DNA of 64,000 nucleotides from a virus (IMGVR_UViG_3300033067_001119:1-64000), one strand, 5' to 3'. Positions 53,704 through 63,673 are shown, numbered from the stretch's first letter. Made by a program: numbers and translations. The notes: generated by a model from the letters alone, not told the origin.

Positions 53704-53709
53704 ATGAAA

Positions 53710-53780
53710 TGGTCCCGAAGCCCTGTGTCGATCAGGGCTGGCAGCCGTATGAAAGCTGCGTCCTCGCCGGAGGCATCGGG
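53710..53780 (-). tRNA. tRNA-Met/Ile2(CAT), T-loop ATCGACA
   Basis: Cloverleaf; loop TTCATAC. Confidence 0.75.
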
Positions 53781-53781
53781 A

Positions 53782-53852
53782 TGGCAGCGGCACACAGTGT
53801 CGAACTGTGCTCTCAGGTTTCAAAGACCCAATCCCTCACCGGAGGTGCCGCA
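53782..53852 (-). tRNA. trnQ: tRNA-Gln(TTG)
   Basis: Cloverleaf; loop CTTTGAA. Confidence 0.8.
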
Positions 53853-53857
53853 TCAAA

Positions 53858-53933
53858 TGGTAGAGCCTGCGGGTGCTGCCCCCGCTTCCCCGCTTTGAAA
53901 GAGCAGGCATCCTAGCTGGTAGACGAAGGCTCC
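53858..53933 (-). tRNA. trnE: tRNA-Glu(TTC), T-loop GGCAGCA
   Basis: Cloverleaf; loop CTTTCAA. Confidence 0.8.
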
Positions 53934-53934
53934 G

Positions 53935-54009: not shown

Positions 54010-54050
54010 GTAATTCGCAATTCGCCGCGAATTACGGCGAATTGCGGAAT

Positions 54051-54138
54051 TGGCGGAAGGCCGGAGACACGATCACCACACCGTTGCCAGTGCCATGCCC
54101 TTAGCAGGGGCCGCCAGCGCCTCGCTGGTTGACCTTCC
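54051..54138 (-). tRNA. trnS: tRNA-Ser(GCT) with 8/4 architecture
   Basis: 8-bp acceptor, 4-bp T-stem, 6-bp D-stem, long variable arm, G73. Confidence 0.8.
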
Positions 54139-54140
54139 AT

Positions 54141-54217
54141 TGGTGCCCACGGGAAGATTCGAACTCCCCTAGTCCAGCTACGGTACCCCGCTTAGGAGGC
54201 GGGGCCGGTACGTGGGC
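54141..54217 (-). tRNA. D-armless tRNA-like gene, anticodon CCT (Arg)
   Basis: 7-bp acceptor, 6-nt linker, 6-bp anticodon stem, 17-nt variable region, TTCGAAT loop. Confidence 0.6.
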
Positions 54218-54221
54218 AAAT

Positions 54222-54769: not shown

Positions 54770-54776
54770 ACAGAGA

Positions 54777-54848
54777 TGGTGGAGTGACGGAGAGTTGAAC
54801 TCCGGACGGCAATCTTGCAAGGATCGCCTGCAGCCCGCTGCTCACCCC
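54777..54848 (-). tRNA. trnA: tRNA-Ala(TGC)
   Basis: G3:U70 present; reduced D-arm. Confidence 0.8.
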
Positions 54849-54852
54849 ATGT

Positions 54853-55197: not shown

Positions 55198-55201
55198 ATA
55201 A

Positions 55202-55277
55202 TGGTGCGCCGCTTGAACTCGGTCGCGCATCGACAAGTACATCCGTTGTTCGATGGAATTAGCGCTTGTAGCACATC
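55202..55277 (-). ncRNA. CCA-ending tRNA-like element of unassigned identity
   Basis: GTTCAA and CCA end; CATCG/CGATG stem; no cloverleaf. Confidence 0.35.
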
Positions 55278-55368
55278 TGGCGGGCGAGGGGTAGTAACGC
55301 TCTCCATGCCCGGTGGGCACCTTTGGTTTTCGAGACCAAGCTGGGGACTTCCCGCAGTTCTCTCGCCC
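55278..55368 (-). tRNA. trnS: tRNA-Ser(CGA) with extended acceptor and long D-stem
   Basis: 8-9 bp acceptor, T-loop AGCGTTA, long variable arm, G73. Confidence 0.7.
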
Positions 55369-55372
55369 GTGT

Positions 55373-55449: not shown

Positions 55450-55827
55450 TTACTTCCTGCCCTTGCGGCGCACGTTGCCGCGGGCGTCGTAGTTGCCGGT
55501 CGGCCAGTAGCGGTTCATCTTCACCTCGCCGACCAGGCCGTCGTCGGTGAATACCGCCGGGCCCTTCAGCGTCTTGCCGTCGACCGCCTGCTCGAACGCA
55601 AGGTAGCTTCCGCCCGCATCCGGGCTCGCTGGGTTGACGAAAAACAGATCGAGGTCCGTTGGCTCATCCAGCGGGACGGGCACTCCAGCAGCCTCGCAGG
55701 CCCGGTAAAGGGCATCCCTGTATTGCTGGATTACCGCCTGATGCATCCGCCGGTGCGGTGCGTCGTGTATCCAGAGACGGAGCAGCGCCGGGAAGCGCTG
55801 GCCGTCATACTGTACCTTGATCTTCAT
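55450..55827 (-). CDS. Divergent RusA-like protein inside tRNA array
   Basis: LDLFFVNPASPDAGG...FEQAVDG...VFTDDGLV. Confidence 0.5.
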   Translation of the reverse strand: MKIKVQYDGQRFPALLRLWIHDAPHRRMHQAVIQQYRDALYRACEAAGVPVPLDEPTDLDLFFVNPASPDAGGSYLAFEQAVDGKTLKGPAVFTDDGLVGEVKMNRYWPTGNYDARGNVRRKGRK

Positions 55828-55837
55828 GGTGGGCCTT

Positions 55838-55903
55838 TGGTGGAAGCGGCGGGCTGGGTGAGCCCGCTAATCACTCTGTTATGAGCAGAGGGTCTCCGCT
55901 TTT
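55838..55903 (-). tRNA. D-armless tRNA-like remnant (CAT) overlapping the GIY-YIG 3' end
   Basis: CTCTG-CTCATAA-CAGAG arm, GCGGGC/GCCCGC T-like arm, CGCTTCC-A-CCA. Confidence 0.5.
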
Positions 55904-56404
55904 CGACTTCACTTCCCTCTGACGTTGCCACTGCAGGATCGCGGCTTGGCGCAGTCTCTCCCTATGCTCCGGCGATTTGGTGCGCCCCTTGTGGGCTAGG
56001 CCACCCTTTCGCCCGTTCTCACGAAGCTGCTCTTTGGCAAGAGAAAATATCCCAGTTCCACGATCTCGATTTGCGACCCCGCCCCGGCTTTGACTTTTGG
56101 ACGCGAATGCGCCCTTGCGGGCGTTCTCCGCGGTAAATCCACCAACACCACCGCGACGCATATTGTAGGTGCGCGACACACGGTAATCGGCGGTCAATTC
56201 CACTTCTTTTGCGTAAGCCTCAGCACTGGTGTCAAAAACGAACAACACGTCCTTGCGGAAGGAACGCTTGCCATGCTTCCGGATCGCAGCGCGGATAGCT
56301 CGACCACTCCCGAAGTATCCATCATTCGGATTGTCCGTCTTGTGGACACCGACGTAGGTCTTGCCGTTGGCCAGATTAGTGATGCGGTAGACGGTGAACA
56401 TCAC
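55871..56404 (-). CDS. GIY-YIG homing endonuclease with NUMOD3-like tail
   Basis: TVYRITNLANGKTYVG...YFGSG; HKGRTKSPEHRERL. Confidence 0.9.
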   Translation of the reverse strand: MMFTVYRITNLANGKTYVGVHKTDNPNDGYFGSGRAIRAAIRKHGKRSFRKDVLFVFDTSAEAYAKEVELTADYRVSRTYNMRRGGVGGFTAENARKGAFASKSQSRGGVANRDRGTGIFSLAKEQLRENGRKGGLAHKGRTKSPEHRERLRQAAILQWQRQREVKSKSGDPLLITE

Positions 56405-56706: not shown

Positions 56707-56782
56707 TGGTGTGCGTGGGGTGATTCGAACACCCGCTGTACAGGTTCTCGGCCTGCTCTCTCTGCCACTGGAGTACACGCAC
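56707..56782 (-). tRNA. trnL: tRNA-Leu(GAG), short variable loop, C33
   Basis: Cloverleaf; loop CCGAGAA. Confidence 0.8.
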
Positions 56783-56787
56783 ATTGT

Positions 56788-56863
56788 TGGTACACCCTCG
56801 GAGAATCGAACTCCGCCCTCATGGTTTAAGAGACCAGCGCACGAACCAACATGCTCAGGGTGT
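56788..56863 (-). tRNA. trnK: tRNA-Lys(CTT)
   Basis: Cloverleaf. Confidence 0.88.
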
Positions 56864-56868
56864 GTGAG

Positions 56869-56951
56869 TGGAGGACGTCGGAGGTTACGATCCTCATGCG
56901 ACGCGGTTTAAAAGACCGGCCCAAAGCCACTCTGGTTTACGCTCGACGTCC
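56869..56951 (-). tRNA. trnK: tRNA-Lys(TTT) with 8/4 architecture, U73
   Basis: GGACGTCG/CGACGTCC, GAGG/CCTC, 6-bp D-stem. Confidence 0.7.
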
Positions 56952-56956
56952 GTATC

Positions 56957-57160
56957 TCAGGACGCCGGTTTGCTGATGTTCTTCTCTTCGCACACCACGA
57001 TGGTGCCGGTGTCGCGGAAGTGATGCACCCAGCGTCGCCGCAGGCGCACGGGCACAAGCCCAAACTGGCAGTGGACGCATGGCGATGCTGCAGCCGCCCA
57101 TTCCTTCCATGCCTTCATCGAAGTCTCGACGAGAGGCCAGTCCGTTGCTGCCGTAGTCAT
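56957..57160 (-). CDS. Small Cys/His protein inside tRNA array
   Basis: CVHC...WVHH...C; AGGAG RBS. Confidence 0.5.
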   Translation of the reverse strand: MTTAATDWPLVETSMKAWKEWAAAASPCVHCQFGLVPVRLRRRWVHHFRDTGTIVVCEEKNISKPAS

Positions 57161-57173
57161 GGCGCTCTCCTGT

Positions 57174-57248
57174 TGGTGCTCGGAAGCGGCTTGCAACCGC
57201 CATGCGAGGCGTACGACGCGGCCTGCCCGCACCTTGCTAAGCCCGAGC
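57174..57248 (-). tRNA. Thr(CGT)-like tRNA with degenerate anticodon stem
   Basis: Good acceptor and T-stem, T-loop TTGCAAG, weak anticodon arm. Confidence 0.5.
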
Positions 57249-57252
57249 CTGT

Positions 57253-57326
57253 TGGTAGTCCCTGCTGGTTCTGCCCCAGCGTCGCACGGTTATCGGCCGC
57301 GCATTCTGCTATTGAACTAAGGGACC
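57253..57326 (-). tRNA. trnI: tRNA-Ile(GAT), C33, T-loop GGCAGAA
   Basis: Cloverleaf. Confidence 0.85.
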
Positions 57327-57330
57327 GTGA

Positions 57331-57405
57331 TGGTACGCGCTGCAGGTGCTGCCCCTGCCGCCTCCAGCGTGTCGAGCTGGCGATCTGCTGATGATCTAAG
57401 CGCGC
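57331..57405 (-). tRNA. trnV: tRNA-Val(GAC), C33, T-loop GGCAGCA
   Basis: Cloverleaf. Confidence 0.85.
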
Positions 57406-57410
57406 ATGAA

Positions 57411-57484
57411 TGGTAGTCCCTGACGGTACCTCCCCGCCTTCACCAGCGTGTAAAACTGGCGCATCAATTTAATGCTTAGGGACC
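57411..57484 (-). tRNA. trnV: tRNA-Val(TAC), T-loop GGAGGTA
   Basis: Cloverleaf. Confidence 0.8.
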
Positions 57485-57485
57485 A

Positions 57486-57562
57486 TGGTACCCGCGGCGT
57501 GATTTGAACACGCACTGTAACTTGTTTTGAGCAAGTGGCCTCTGCCGTTGGGCTACGCGGGC
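57486..57562 (-). tRNA. trnL: tRNA-Leu(CAA), short variable loop
   Basis: Cloverleaf; 6-nt variable region. Confidence 0.85.
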
Positions 57563-57566
57563 ATGG

Positions 57567-57643
57567 TGGTGTCCGCCCGGAGATTCGAACTCCGAACCTT
57601 CGCATTCTGAGTGCGACGCCTCTGCCAGTTGGGCTAGGCGGAC
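57567..57643 (-). tRNA. trnL: tRNA-Leu(CAG), short variable loop
   Basis: Cloverleaf; 5-nt variable region. Confidence 0.88.
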
Positions 57644-57644
57644 A

Positions 57645-57721
57645 TGGAGCCCGGCCGGGGTTACGATCCCCGTCCTCGCCCTTACCGGGGGCGTGTGCTG
57701 GCCATTGATCACTAGCCGGGC
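57645..57721 (-). tRNA. trnT: tRNA-Thr(GGT), C33, T-loop ATCGTAA
   Basis: Cloverleaf. Confidence 0.85.
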
Positions 57722-57802
57722 ATGTAGGCGGGAGCGTCCTAACCAACTAGACGAACAGGCCTGACGGCCCGTGGTGGATTCGAACCACCGTTTCTCCCTG
57801 CT
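57722..57802 (-). ncRNA. Circularly permuted, anticodon-less tRNA-like RNA (Asp/Glu-type body)
   Basis: 3' half (GGGAG-AAAC-GGTGG-TTCGAAT-CCACC-ACGGGCC-GTCA) precedes 5' half (GGCCTGT-TCGTCTAGTTGGTTAGGAC-G-CTCCC). Confidence 0.8.
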
Positions 57803-57877
57803 TGGAGCCCATGCCGATGCTCGAACTCGGCTCTCACCCTTACAAGGGGCGCGCGTCGCCATCTACGCTTCATGGGC
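57803..57877 (-). tRNA. trnT: tRNA-Thr(TGT)
   Basis: Cloverleaf. Confidence 0.88.
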
Positions 57878-57880
57878 AAA

Positions 57881-57955
57881 TGGTGCTGCCTCGGTGCCTC
57901 GAACACCGGTCACCGCTTTACGAGGGCGGCGCTCTTCCTGTTGAGCTAAGGCAGC
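57881..57955 (-). tRNA. trnT: tRNA-Thr(CGT)
   Basis: Canonical cloverleaf. Confidence 0.9.
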
Positions 57956-60670: not shown

Positions 60671-63600
60671 CTAGGGACGCTGCTGTTCCTCGTCGGCGCG
60701 TGTTGGGCTGGGGCCCTGAAGTCGTCGCACCGTATTCCCAAGGATCGACTGGTTGCGCATCAGGTACGACGGGAGGGGAGCCTTTGGCGGCAGTAGCCGC
60801 GGGGCCTCGTCCTCCAGATTATCCAGAGACCGGCCGACCTTCTTTGCGTTGCGCATTTCGGTGAAGCGTTCGCCGCCCTTCTCCAGAAGATGCTTGACGC
60901 CGATGCCAGCAAAGCCACCTTCGGCACCGCCGGTAAGGATTGAACCGATGCTGGCCATGATGGCGGCGCCGTACTTGCGCAGTGCCCCCATAATCGCTGG
61001 CGTCGTGTCCGAGTTTGTGCGGGCGTATTTCGGGATGATGGTGAGGCGTAGCGCCTTTGCGTAGCGGTCCATCATGGCGCGCTGCTCTTCCGTGTAGAGA
61101 GCCTTGGCGACCGACGCGCCCTTGCCATGCAGCAGCTCGCTGATGTTGTTGACGACGGCCTGCTGCCCCTTCCCCGAGCGGCCCTCGGTATTTGCAATCG
61201 TCTTCTGCCAGACACCCTGACGAACCGCAGCCATCGCTGGGCTGCCAGAGCCTGTCACGCGCTCGATGGCTGTAATCATGCGCGCCACGTTGCCCGGATT
61301 ACCGCCACCGATGGCATTGAAAACGACGCTGGAGACTTCCTCCGGAGTAGCGGTGCCTTCGACAATGCGACGGAAGGTCGCCTGCTGGCCACCGCCGATG
61401 CCCTGCCCGCCAAACGCGCTGTCAAACATCTGTTGGGCCTGCTCGGCATCGCGCGTCGCCGGGTGAGACGCAATCGACCTCTCCAGATCGCGGATGCCCT
61501 GCGCGTGAGAGCGCATCGCGGCCCGCTCCTGTGGAGTAAACATGCGCTGCGCCAGCGAGGAGCCAACGAAATCCAAGATGCCCTGAGCCGACTTTGCCGG
61601 GTCAATCTCTCCGGCGGAGTTCCGCGCCTGAGATGCCTTCTGCCACATCGCCTGCCGGATGGCGCTCCAGCCATCCGAATCAGCACCCAGCACCTGCTCC
61701 AGCCGGTCGGCAAGACGTACCGGGGTGCCGGAGTTGCCGATCTTGCCGGTGCCGATGATCATGTTGGCGATTTCTTCCGGCGTTGCGTTGCGCTCGGTGA
61801 TGCGCCGCATGGCGGTGCCCACGTCGTCCCCAGCGCCCCGTGGGGTGAAGGTCTGACGATAGCGCGCATAGGATGCCCTCGCCTCCTGCAACGCAGCCAG
61901 TGCCCTTGGATCGCCCGAGAAAAGGCCCTCTGTGATGGCTCGCTCGATCTGGGCGTCGAAGGCATCCATGATGCCCTGCATGGCGCGGGCGTCGGTCGCT
62001 CCGTTGGGTCCCGAGGCGCGGGCAGCCTGATAGTAAGCCACCAGCTTCTTGCGCATCTGGTCGACACCCTTGAGACTCACAGCGGTGACTTCGGCCGGGT
62101 CCGGAGCTGCGCGCGGATCGGCGCGGTTCTGGATGCGCGGAGCCGACATCTGGTCGAGGTCGCGGATTGCTCGCGATGCCACCGGCGTCAGCTGGTCGTC
62201 GATGATGATCGGATTTTCGCGCAGCGTCAGATCGTTCTGGACGCGGTTTCCCATACCGCGCACGGCATCGACCCTGAACTCGCCGGGGAGGCGACCGAAC
62301 TCATCGTAGCGGGAGCGAAATTCTCCGCGGTTTGCTGCGGCTGCATCTCGCACGTTCTGGCCGACGACCTCGCCCATCTCGCGCGGGTTCTCGATAGGCT
62401 GAGCCGGGCCACGCACCGCCTCATTGATGGCGCGACCTTGGTCTGCGACCATCCCGCGCTGAGCTTCGGCTTCAGTATTGGAGCGATGCAAAACACGATC
62501 TACGATGGTCTTCGCCTGCTGAAGACGATCACCCATCTCCCCCGTGATGGCAGAGGCAGCCTCGTTGGGATCGCTGACAGGGTGCGCTCCGCCCAAGCCG
62601 GTGCCAATCTCTCGCCCGGCTTCCTGAGTCCTTCCGTACTGGTCATCGAAGAACGTGGCCGCCTTGTCCTGCGCTGGCTTGCCATACGCGCCGCGCGCCG
62701 ACAGGTCTTCGTACCGGATCGCATCCAAATCCTGCGTGGCCTGCCCCTTGGACAGTGGAATTTTGAACTCAGCCGCCACATCCTTGTTGGCAGCTACTTC
62801 CGGCGGAATAGGCGGCCGGACAGGCAGCGCACGAGGCACCGCAAACAGGCCGCCTCCGGGCGCGCCGGGCGTCATGAATTGAACCGCCCGCATCGCATCC
62901 GGACCGCCACGTCCGAGGGCGGCATCGTATTCTTTCTGGCTCCCCGCCTCGCGGGCAGCTACGGCATCATGCGAGCTGTCAACAGCGCCCTTGATGCCCT
63001 GCCACGCCTCTTTCGCCATCCATAGCGGGCCGCCCGGCGTTGCCTTCTCCCACATGTTTGAGATGCGGTCGCTCCACGTCTTCTTCGGAGCCTCGGCAGG
63101 AGCATCATCCCATTTCACGCCACCAGCATCGGCGGCGTCATCATCCCACTTCACCCGGCCGCCCTCGGCGCGGTTCTTCACCGGCACCGTGGTGTCTTCC
63201 TCGCGCAGCCAGCGCTTGAACTGAGGGATGTCCATCTCGGTCATGTGCCCAATGCGGTCACGGCCACGACCATCAGAGAAAGCTGCGTGGTAGGCTGCCT
63301 CGGCCTGCGCCTTGCTGCCAAATCCGAGGAAGCACTTGTGCTCGTCGAAGCCGCCGGTGTGAAGATCGTTCTGGTCGATCACGAAGACCTTCGGGCTCTT
63401 CAGGTGAGGCCCGAGATAGACGTCGACGTGCGCACCATCTCCGCCGGTCGTGTTGCGGATGTAGCCGTAGTGGTGCGGGAGCCGGGATTTCCACGCCTTG
63501 CCGGTGCGCGCATCCTTGCCGCTACGATACGAGCCACGCGGGTTCTCGATGGAGATGTCGAGCCCGTGAACCCTGATGTGGCCCTTCCTGTAGTTGCCCG

Positions 63601-63673
63601 CGCGCTTCTGTCCGTCGCTCGGGTTGCGATTGACGGCACTGGCCTGCTCGGCGATTTGAGCGGAGAGGCTCAC
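60671..63673 (-). CDS. Polyvalent/internal virion protein with N-terminal InPase-like domain
   Basis: GNYRKGH...ISIENPRGS...HYGYI...DGAHVDVY...IDQ...FDEHK; long helical remainder. Confidence 0.8.
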   Translation of the reverse strand: MSLSAQIAEQASAVNRNPSDGQKRAGNYRKGHIRVHGLDISIENPRGSYRSGKDARTGKAWKSRLPHHYGYIRNTTGGDGAHVDVYLGPHLKSPKVFVIDQNDLHTGGFDEHKCFLGFGSKAQAEAAYHAAFSDGRGRDRIGHMTEMDIPQFKRWLREEDTTVPVKNRAEGGRVKWDDDAADAGGVKWDDAPAEAPKKTWSDRISNMWEKATPGGPLWMAKEAWQGIKGAVDSSHDAVAAREAGSQKEYDAALGRGGPDAMRAVQFMTPGAPGGGLFAVPRALPVRPPIPPEVAANKDVAAEFKIPLSKGQATQDLDAIRYEDLSARGAYGKPAQDKAATFFDDQYGRTQEAGREIGTGLGGAHPVSDPNEAASAITGEMGDRLQQAKTIVDRVLHRSNTEAEAQRGMVADQGRAINEAVRGPAQPIENPREMGEVVGQNVRDAAAANRGEFRSRYDEFGRLPGEFRVDAVRGMGNRVQNDLTLRENPIIIDDQLTPVASRAIRDLDQMSAPRIQNRADPRAAPDPAEVTAVSLKGVDQMRKKLVAYYQAARASGPNGATDARAMQGIMDAFDAQIERAITEGLFSGDPRALAALQEARASYARYRQTFTPRGAGDDVGTAMRRITERNATPEEIANMIIGTGKIGNSGTPVRLADRLEQVLGADSDGWSAIRQAMWQKASQARNSAGEIDPAKSAQGILDFVGSSLAQRMFTPQERAAMRSHAQGIRDLERSIASHPATRDAEQAQQMFDSAFGGQGIGGGQQATFRRIVEGTATPEEVSSVVFNAIGGGNPGNVARMITAIERVTGSGSPAMAAVRQGVWQKTIANTEGRSGKGQQAVVNNISELLHGKGASVAKALYTEEQRAMMDRYAKALRLTIIPKYARTNSDTTPAIMGALRKYGAAIMASIGSILTGGAEGGFAGIGVKHLLEKGGERFTEMRNAKKVGRSLDNLEDEAPRLLPPKAPLPSYLMRNQSILGNTVRRLQGPSPTRADEEQQRP

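Follow-up and report, generated by a model that had tools for sequence, protein, structure and literature searches.

A remodelled tRNA-Lys(UUU) gene with an additional helix and a candidate regulatory leader in a phage tRNA array

Does the 83-nucleotide (nt) element at positions 56869-56951 (minus strand) of the viral contig IMGVR_UViG_3300033067_001119, which standard tRNA finders pass over, encode a working tRNA? The window analysed here is a stretch of 64,000 nt (positions 1-64000) of this 74.4-kb IMG/VR contig, and the element lies within a dense minus-strand tRNA array, where a small open reading frame (ORF) ends 5 nt before it and tRNA-Lys(CUU) begins 5 nt after it. An initial annotation had described it as a heavily remodelled tRNA-Lys(UUU), a description for which comparative analysis now provides strong support. 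We conclude, with a probability of about 0.58, that the element is a real and selectively maintained gene for a non-canonical tRNA-Lys(UUU), the phage's own AAA decoder. Three aspects appear to be new: a Lys(UUU) member of the tRNAs combining an 8-base-pair (bp) acceptor stem with a 4-bp T stem (8/4 tRNAs), the pairing of its extra segment with the variable region, and a leader in which an arm complementary to the acceptor strand adjoins an AAA codon.

Read 5′ to 3′ on the minus strand, the element opens with the acceptor 5′ strand GGACGUCG (56944-56951), followed by the connector A-GCG-UAAA, in which GCG (56940-56942) is the 5′ strand of a helix that we term helix X. The D-like hairpin (56921-56935) has a 6-bp stem, CCAGAG/CUUUGG, closed by a UGG loop, and is separated by a single G from the anticodon arm (56902-56919), whose stem, CCGGU/ACCG(C)G, bulges out a single C and closes the loop CUUUUAA, the anticodon UUU lying at 56910-56912. 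The 3′ part comprises the variable region U-CGC-AU, whose CGC (56898-56900) forms the 3′ strand of helix X, the T arm (56881-56895) with a 4-bp stem, GAGG/CCUC, and the loop AUCGUAA (A54, U55, C56, U58), the acceptor 3′ strand CGACGUCC (56873-56880), the discriminator U73 (56872) and an encoded CCA (56871-56869). The 8/4 fold, the 6-bp D-stem beginning after 8 nt, the A54 T-loop and U73 of the initial annotation are thus all borne out, as is its account of the adjoining tRNA-Lys(CUU) (56788-56863, minus strand) as normal; this conserved downstream partner is canonical and is recognised by ARAGORN and by Rfam (43.3 bits). Its "8-nt linker" needs qualification: 8 nt do precede the hairpin, but they are not unstructured, as nt 2-4 (56942-56940) pair with 56900-56898. 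Canonical tRNA traits retained by the element include a 7-nt anticodon loop with U33 and a purine at position 37 (C-U-UUU-A-A), U55/C56, N73-CCA, a 12-bp (8 + 4) acceptor/T stack and a GG within the invariant UGG loop; the 7-bp acceptor with 5-bp T stem, the 2-nt connector and the 4-bp D stem closing a D-loop are absent.

ARAGORN found 23 tRNAs across the window and, run by default or with -ps, left the element uncalled, and Rfam RF00005 (gathering score 29 bits) gave no match at the element even at E ≤ 10. ARAGORN calls the element only in metazoan-mitochondrial mode (-mt) or with -ps80, in each case with a fold that is rejected by covariation. The single-sequence fold of the element is not beyond chance (z = -1.77; 8 of 200 shuffles fold equally well), and the case for it therefore rests on comparison.

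Syntenic loci in related viral contigs, reached through the adjacent ORF, hold either of two forms: group 1, the same 83-nt form as in the window (e.g. locus L006), and group 2, which is 75 nt long and combines a 7-bp acceptor with a degenerate D stem and the T-loop GGCAGUA. Scanning with the window's T arm alone yielded three more group 1 members, and a scan of metagenome and genome collections with the anticodon loop plus T arm brought group 1 to 25 distinct sequences from viral, metagenome and metagenome-assembled genome (MAG) contigs. Both the CUUUUAA loop and an exact match to the T arm were demanded in the wide searches of these collections; the invariance of both features is circular because both are in the search pattern, and further members of the family probably exist. 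Covariance model R1 scores the element at 94.6 bits with exactly the ends given above. A search of viral contigs with the pattern GCGTAAACC-N15-24-CTTTTAA returned 115+ matches, nearly all due to chance, the real ones being confined to the window's locus and L006. In the GenBank phage collection megablast gave no match and no cultured relative was found; the sole blastn match paired a Klebsiella-phage tRNA-Asp with the neighbouring Asp gene.

Scanning with the group 2 anticodon arm revealed a graded series of phage Lys(UUU) genes running from fully canonical to group 2. Group 2 elements occupy the same locus in L002, L003, L004, L014, L030, L031 and L033 (e.g. L002 4123-4197). Their 7-bp acceptor covaries, their degenerate D region GUAG-GAAAGUA-GCAC is invariant with only 2 pairs possible, and their anticodon stem is mismatched at C31.C39 and C27.U43; L019, L023, L013 and L025 are intermediates between group 2 and the canonical forms of L012, L015 and L020. 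Metatranscriptome and DNA contigs also carry a group 2 element at this locus, beside a Lys(CUU) nearly identical to that of the window (at least 95-99% in the metatranscriptome contigs), an arrangement in keeping with the two forms being interchangeable. In one lineage, represented by L260 (10437-10511, plus strand) and L264 (4543-4617, minus strand), Lys(ttt) was called a further time, on the strand opposite to the array and approximately 1.5 kb away from it; with C33 and a poorly paired acceptor these are unconvincing as canonical copies and could be att-site remnants or pseudo-tRNAs.

We scored the proposed structure (8-bp acceptor, 3-bp helix X, 6-bp D-like hairpin, 5-bp anticodon stem and 4-bp T stem) on an unconstrained MAFFT alignment, A2, of the 25 group 1 sequences. 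Overall 95.5% of alignment cells were paired, compared to 34-50% when partners were slid by 1-3 columns, and 18 of the 26 pairs displayed changes on both sides; none of 500 shuffles reached the observed values. Within the acceptor helix (98.5% paired) both sides changed in 5 of 8 pairs, including the eighth, which alternates between G-C and U-A. All three pairs of helix X (98.7% paired) covary (GC22/AU3, CG23/UA2, GC22/CG2), giving the combinations GCG:CGC, ACG:CGU, ACC:GGU, GUC:GAC and GUG:CAC across the family, and helix X is also present in the minimum free energy (MFE) fold of the window sequence by itself. Both-side changes were likewise seen in five of the six stem pairs of the D-like hairpin, whose stem is 5-6 bp long across the family and whose UGG loop is present in 25 of 25 sequences, and in every pair of the anticodon stem (96% paired), where the bulged C (alignment column 52) is common to the window, L006 and L281. 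Covariation thus shows the element to be an 8/4 fold with an extra helix X. The 7/5 cloverleaf drawn by ARAGORN -mt (5′ strand GAGCGUA) fails on the same alignment, with pair 12-78 unpaired in 20 of 25 sequences, 17-76 unpaired in 16, and the fifth T-stem pair (59-75) impossible in all 25. The connector GAGC is complementary to the acceptor 3′ GUUC in about 21 of the 25 (A2 columns 8-11/79-82; window 56944-56941/56876-56873) without compensatory changes; this complementarity may be trivial, since GGAC and GAGC both pair with GUUC, or may reflect an alternative conformer.

How could such a molecule adopt the shape of a tRNA? Helix X has a suitable strand polarity and would stack on the anticodon stem in the place of the D stem, and the UGG loop would take over the role of G18/G19 in contacting U55/C56 within the T-loop AUCGUAA. 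Such an arrangement would keep both the L shape and the 12-bp limb of acceptor and T stems.

The additional helix is known only with the anticodon UUU. Model R1 gave at most 37 bits on the other tRNAs of the window, with helix X unpaired in all of them, so that only the element satisfies helix X. A scan with the T arm alone recovered five loci with the helix X fold (four beside the window), all five of which carry UUU, while the matches at the 76 further loci sharing this T arm were all canonical-bodied tRNAs scoring no more than 46 bits. The A54/U58 T-loop on the other hand is not specific to Lys, AUCGUAA being present also in Asp, Thr(GGU) and Gly(GCC). Other T-loops of the array are AGCGUAA in His and of GGCAG type in Glu(UUC), both Val and Ile. 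Throughout the array (window 56707-57955 and its relatives) most of the phage tRNAs alter positions 54/58 or 55; the tRNA-Lys(UUU) of the host MAGs is by contrast fully canonical, with the T-loop UUCGAUA and GG in the D-loop.

The genomic setting favours a functional tRNA. No other gene with a UUU anticodon is present in the 74.4-kb genome, the array otherwise covers the code for all amino acids, and the Lys codons of the phage include about 71 AAA (approximately 16%) versus 381 AAG. At nearly every locus Lys(CUU) comes next after the element, as tightly spaced as is usual in the array, and CCA is encoded in 15 of 25 homologues; elsewhere the next tRNA begins 1-2 bases past the discriminator. 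Of the seven matches from the genome collection, five lie on contigs that binning assigns to Xanthobacteraceae MAGs and one on a contig that it assigns to Roseiarcus. Class I lysyl-tRNA synthetase (LysRS) was detected in five of five MAGs tested (434-456 bits). The tRNA-Lys(UUU) of Xanthobacteraceae MAGs G001, G002 and G004 is canonical with G2.U71 and A73, and that of the Roseiarcus MAG has A2-U71. Class I LysRS reportedly tolerates G2.U71, a pair that is said, in work attributed to Ibba et al. in 1999, to block class II LysRS; 20 of the 25 elements have G2.U71 and the window's element has G2-C71. We searched the phage for RtcB, a CCA-adding enzyme and class I LysRS without finding any of them, and the phage would therefore depend on host enzymes. 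Most likely the element works as a tRNA charged by the class I LysRS of the host: host RNase P and 3′ processing would cut it out of the tRNA polycistron, LysRS would charge it, and the ribosome would use it at phage AAA codons.

A number of observations weigh against this conclusion. The discriminator varies (G in 17, A in 5 and U in 3 sequences, with U in the window) where the host has A73, and such variation among the substrates of one synthetase is unusual. Contigs from RNA libraries cover only Lys(CUU) and a relative's group 2 element, not the element of the window; two metatranscriptome contigs were assessed, contigs cannot show RNA ends, and we read nothing into the gap in their coverage. 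Assignment of the host rests on the binning of phage-sized contigs with MAGs. Invariance of the anticodon loop can be judged only from the five-locus set of the T-arm scan, and the three-dimensional arrangement of helix X and the hairpin is itself inferred. Finally E. coli enzymes, namely the glycyl- and threonyl-tRNA synthetases GlyRS and ThrRS, did not charge the closest described relative, an 8/4 "E-loop" tRNA (PMC5389517).

What lies immediately upstream raises the further question of how the element might be matured. The small ORF encodes 67 amino acids (aa; 56957-57160, minus strand; 91 aa if started from GTG 57232) and has homologues 49-89% identical; the protein carries a CxxC...HH...C motif and a C-terminal K-P-A-S-stop, and matched no Pfam or PHROGs family. 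An "anti-acceptor" arm, CGGCGUCC (56960-56967, minus strand), is complementary to GGACGUCG (56951-56944), and the intervening 8-nt hairpin loop (56952-56959) holds the ORF stop codon UGA (56957-56959). One nt before the arm lies an in-frame AAA (Lys) codon (56969-56971). Wherever group 1 or group 2 elements follow an ORF and not a tRNA, complementarity to the 5′ acceptor strand is seen in the final ~8 nt of the leader, and arm and acceptor co-vary across lineages (CGGGGUCU/GGACCCCG, AGGGUUC/GGACCCU, UCGUGAUC/GAUCACGA, CCGGGUCC/GGACCCGG). Stems of at least 6 contiguous bp form in 19 of 34 leaders paired with their own element, against 7.7% of cross-lineage pairings and 3.5% of shuffled leaders; upstream of 594 other tRNAs of the same arrays 7 bp are reached by 2.5% and 8 bp by 0.3%. 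The leader hairpins range from -14 to -19 kcal/mol, that of the window alone having -14.1 kcal/mol (z = -2.98). We considered whether the arm is merely a relic copy of the 3′ acceptor strand. This is contradicted by the G.U pairs of the leader, which sit at other positions than those of the true acceptor stem, so that it is complementarity to the 5′ strand, and not identity, that is conserved.

Directly 5′ of the arm, every ORF-type leader has the AAA codon, always in frame; the other Lys codons of the upstream ORFs are mostly AAG. These ORFs are of at least three kinds, namely the CxxC protein, an unrelated protein family (L014, L019, L030) and a mini-ORF. Fifteen diverged mini-ORF leaders have kept a Shine-Dalgarno (SD)-like GGAG, an ATG and an indel-free ATG-N12-AAA spacing, with codons between ATG and AAA that vary, partly synonymously. 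The stop codon falls in the hairpin loop in the window and other CxxC-ORF lineages, and within the element in most mini-ORF lineages. In the predicted MFE structure of the window's 107-nt precursor the leader hairpin forms in place of the acceptor stem. Leader hairpin and acceptor stem are thus mutually exclusive, and translation must run through the hairpin: a ribosome engaged on the upstream ORF, whose end lies in the loop, has to melt it. Maturation of the element is probably gated, and we suggest as a hypothesis that it is coupled to translation of the ORF.

One form that such coupling could take is a "hungry-codon" sensor: the pausing of a ribosome at AAA would report how much Lys-tRNA(UUU) is available and would gate the maturation of this tRNA accordingly. 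A ribosome waiting at AAA would cover the anti-acceptor arm, which starts 1-3 nt downstream, freeing the 5′ acceptor strand and allowing the tRNA to fold and be cut out by RNase P; were the AAA decoder plentiful, the ribosome would reach the stop codon, the hairpin would re-form and the precursor would stay unprocessed. We regard this mechanism as speculative and, on balance, doubtful. If true, it would amount to attenuation-type feedback on tRNA maturation and would allow the phage to raise its own supply exactly when that of host tRNA-Lys(UUU) runs low, as under attack by an anticodon nuclease. Leader-peptide attenuators of the trpL, hisL and pheL type offer a parallel. The leaders share with them an SD-led short ORF, a cognate codon placed directly ahead of an RNA arm and a pair of structures that exclude each other; they differ in that the alternative structure is a tRNA acceptor stem and not a terminator, in having a single regulatory codon and, in the window, in an ORF that encodes a 67-aa protein and not a mini-peptide. 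A limited literature search found no described leader-peptide control of tRNA maturation.

Why should this isoacceptor in particular have been rebuilt? The initial annotation drew attention to tRNA-Lys(UUU) as the target of PrrC and PARIS, with a resistant variant carried by T5, and in this the literature agrees. PrrC cuts tRNA-Lys(UUU) (PMC10264068). AriB of PARIS cleaves the E. coli tRNA at U36AAUC|A41 and also contacts D-loop U16/U17, of which U16 matters, while the T5 tRNA, with U36AAACC41, resists AriB through U39A and A41C (PMC12409363). On this basis the element could be an anti-defence replacement tRNA, whose remodelling was selected to hide the AAA decoder from host tRNA-targeting nucleases (PARIS/AriB-like, OLD, Schlafen, PrrC-like and others) that read D-loop, core or anticodon-stem sequence. 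As an account of why the fold exists this is plausible and compatible with the element being the AAA decoder; we hold it tentatively and think it rather unlikely. Beyond tRNA-Lys(UUU) being a documented nuclease target with a known escape in T5 (PMC12409363), the 3′ side of the window's anticodon stem, UAAACC, is the T5 hexamer, the UAAUCA of the likely host being like the site cleaved in E. coli, and A41 is kept by no homologue. The canonical D-loop has given way to a UGG triloop, the helix X fold is limited to the UUU anticodon, and a full phage tRNA set would fit wholesale replacement of a threatened host pool. Yet PrrC cuts in the anticodon loop, and this loop does not differ from that of the host. 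The T5-like hexamer is restricted to one sub-lineage (window, L006 and L281) and may be a coincidence, as the anticodon-stem sequence varies freely like that of any covarying stem, positions 39-41 reading UCC, UCU, GCC, CCC, CUC and GUU in other homologues. Many isoacceptors of the array, and alpha-proteobacterial phages generally (PMC5389517), show non-canonical elbows and 8/4 folds, and hence a good part of the oddity is not directed at Lys. Genes for tRNA repair were not found in the phage in searches for RtcB and T4 Rnl1, the control of the latter search being uninformative, which is neutral at best. The proposal of a replacement tRNA in the initial annotation is thus reasonable in that the element is the only UUU gene, AAA is used and the hexamer is that of T5; the A54 T-loop that it also listed is not peculiar to Lys, and many isoacceptors of the array are non-canonical.

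The same annotation offered a decoy as an alternative, and we found nothing that specifically supports it. An uncharged decoy or sponge would act outside translation, its anticodon arm soaking up or mis-triggering a nuclease, and the anticodon loop is indeed exactly that of the host tRNA on a foreign body, with a variable discriminator that could reflect a loss of charging. Such a mimic needs the anticodon arm alone, whereas here the 12-bp stack, UGG with its U55-C56 elbow partners and the 3′ CCA are kept, and these together with the position in the array point to a working tRNA. The phage set holds no second, canonical Lys(UUU) gene for decoding, and a stoichiometric decoy would presumably be inefficient against a catalytic nuclease, so that we consider a decoy highly improbable. 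Improbable too is a cis-acting tRNA-like switch, with element and leader regulating the upstream ORF or tRNA-Lys(CUU), for example by determining the place of RNase P cleavage in the transcript, and with the UUU "anticodon" a relic or a factor-binding site. A leader hairpin that excludes the acceptor stem and sits in the precursor MFE structure, the ORF stop codon within its loop, the constant pairing of the module with Lys(CUU) and the variable discriminator would all suit a switch. In L219, L256, L277 and L279, however, the element comes right after another tRNA with neither leader ORF nor hairpin, and it therefore stands alone; moreover full tRNA dimensions, an invariant anticodon loop and a CCA end exceed what a switch needs, and the element is the only AAA decoder of a complete set. 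Lastly, a decaying pseudogene sitting in the array by chance would account for its being missed by standard tRNA finders and for a fold energy that is not significant by itself. This explanation is close to refuted by compensatory changes in four helices over 25 sequences with invariant loops, and by conservation of the locus among diverged phages.

Among described tRNAs the nearest comparisons are the 8/4 tRNA-Ser and tRNA-His, the "irregular tRNA polycistrons" of alpha-proteobacterial phages and the allo-tRNAs (Mukai et al., NAR 2017, PMC5389517). The (8/4) Ser and His tRNAs of that paper share with the element the 8-bp acceptor and 4-bp T stem, a long D stem with a 3-4 nt loop and a location within tRNA clusters of alpha-proteobacterial phages. 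The paper describes (8/4) tRNAs and allo-tRNAs as Ser or His species whose variable arm is long and whose connector measures 1-2 nt, and makes no mention of tRNALys; the element has no variable arm (its variable region of 6-7 nt is paired with the connector), the anticodon UUU and an 8-nt connector. The (8/4) "E-loop" tRNA1 of acidobacterial soil metatranscriptomes (PMC5389517, PMC7609411), compared here by its description and not its sequence, likewise has an extra loop between acceptor and D stem, U73 and a soil origin. It differs in its anticodon GCU, its location near toxin-antitoxin loci and its attribution to Acidobacteria, and the available text describes no pairing between extra loop and variable region. 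The tRNA-Lys(UUU) of T5 is also phage-encoded, with U36AAACC41 and a D-loop unlike that of its host, but it is a canonical cloverleaf with resistance proven in E. coli (PMC11464382, PMC12409363); the element has an entirely remodelled core, and its host is probably a soil bacterium of the Rhizobiales. The tRNA-like domain of tmRNA resembles the element in following its acceptor 5′ strand with a short connector and in a closing helix that returns just before the T arm; the element has no tag frame and no pseudoknots, is 83 nt long and possesses a true anticodon arm, and ARAGORN finds no tmRNA in the window.

The element adds a natural architecture, well supported by comparison, to those known for tRNAs: a helix built from connector and variable strands occupies the place where a D stem would usually stack, and a D-like hairpin is re-attached lower down. 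This widens the range of forms known to permit tRNA function, which is probable in this case. It is of direct use in tRNA engineering and to tRNA gene finders, by which the element and at least 10 other genes of the array go unrecognised. Confinement of the fold to an isoacceptor attacked by several anti-phage nucleases provides a testable case of escape at the level of the tRNA body as opposed to that of the loop. The leader hairpin and AAA codon would, if functional, represent a new coupling of translation to tRNA maturation.

The genes missed by ARAGORN comprise at least 10 more tRNA-like genes in the gaps 53704-53934, 54010-54221, 54775-54852, 55198-55372 and 57253-57485 (minus strand). 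These include Glu(UUC), Val(GAC) and Ile(GAU) with GGCAG-type T-loops, Val(UAC) with GGAGGUA, Gln(UUG), Ala(UGC), Ser(CGA), one gene with the unclear loop TTTCATA and an element with a CCU anticodon in which a D-arm-like segment follows the anticodon arm; Rfam finds only Ile (42 bits) among them. Ser(GCU) (54051-54138, minus strand) has an 8/4 fold with the 8-bp acceptor GGAAGGUC/GGCCUUCC, a 2-nt connector, the 6-bp D hairpin CCAGCG-AGG-CGCUGG, a GCAA-capped variable arm and the T-loop AUCGUGU. Its D hairpin is closely similar to that of Lys(UUU), which hints at a shared origin of the 8/4 bodies. Between two Thr tRNAs, positions 57722-57802 (minus strand) hold an apparent circularly permuted or split tRNA, in which the 3′ half (GGGAG, the T arm GGUGG-UUCGAAU-CCACC, ACGGGCC) is followed by GUCA and then by the 5′ half (GGCCUGU, a canonical D arm, CUCCC). 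A GIY-YIG (SegE-like) homing endonuclease gene lies within the tRNA array at 55871-56404 (minus strand; Pfam PF19835, PF01541), adjoined by a 125-aa ORF (55450-55827) that ends 2 nt before tRNA-Arg(CCG). At 60671-63673 (minus strand) a 1000-aa protein is encoded, the first ~155 residues of which match the Pfam family InPase (inorganic pyrophosphatase) with 165 bits.

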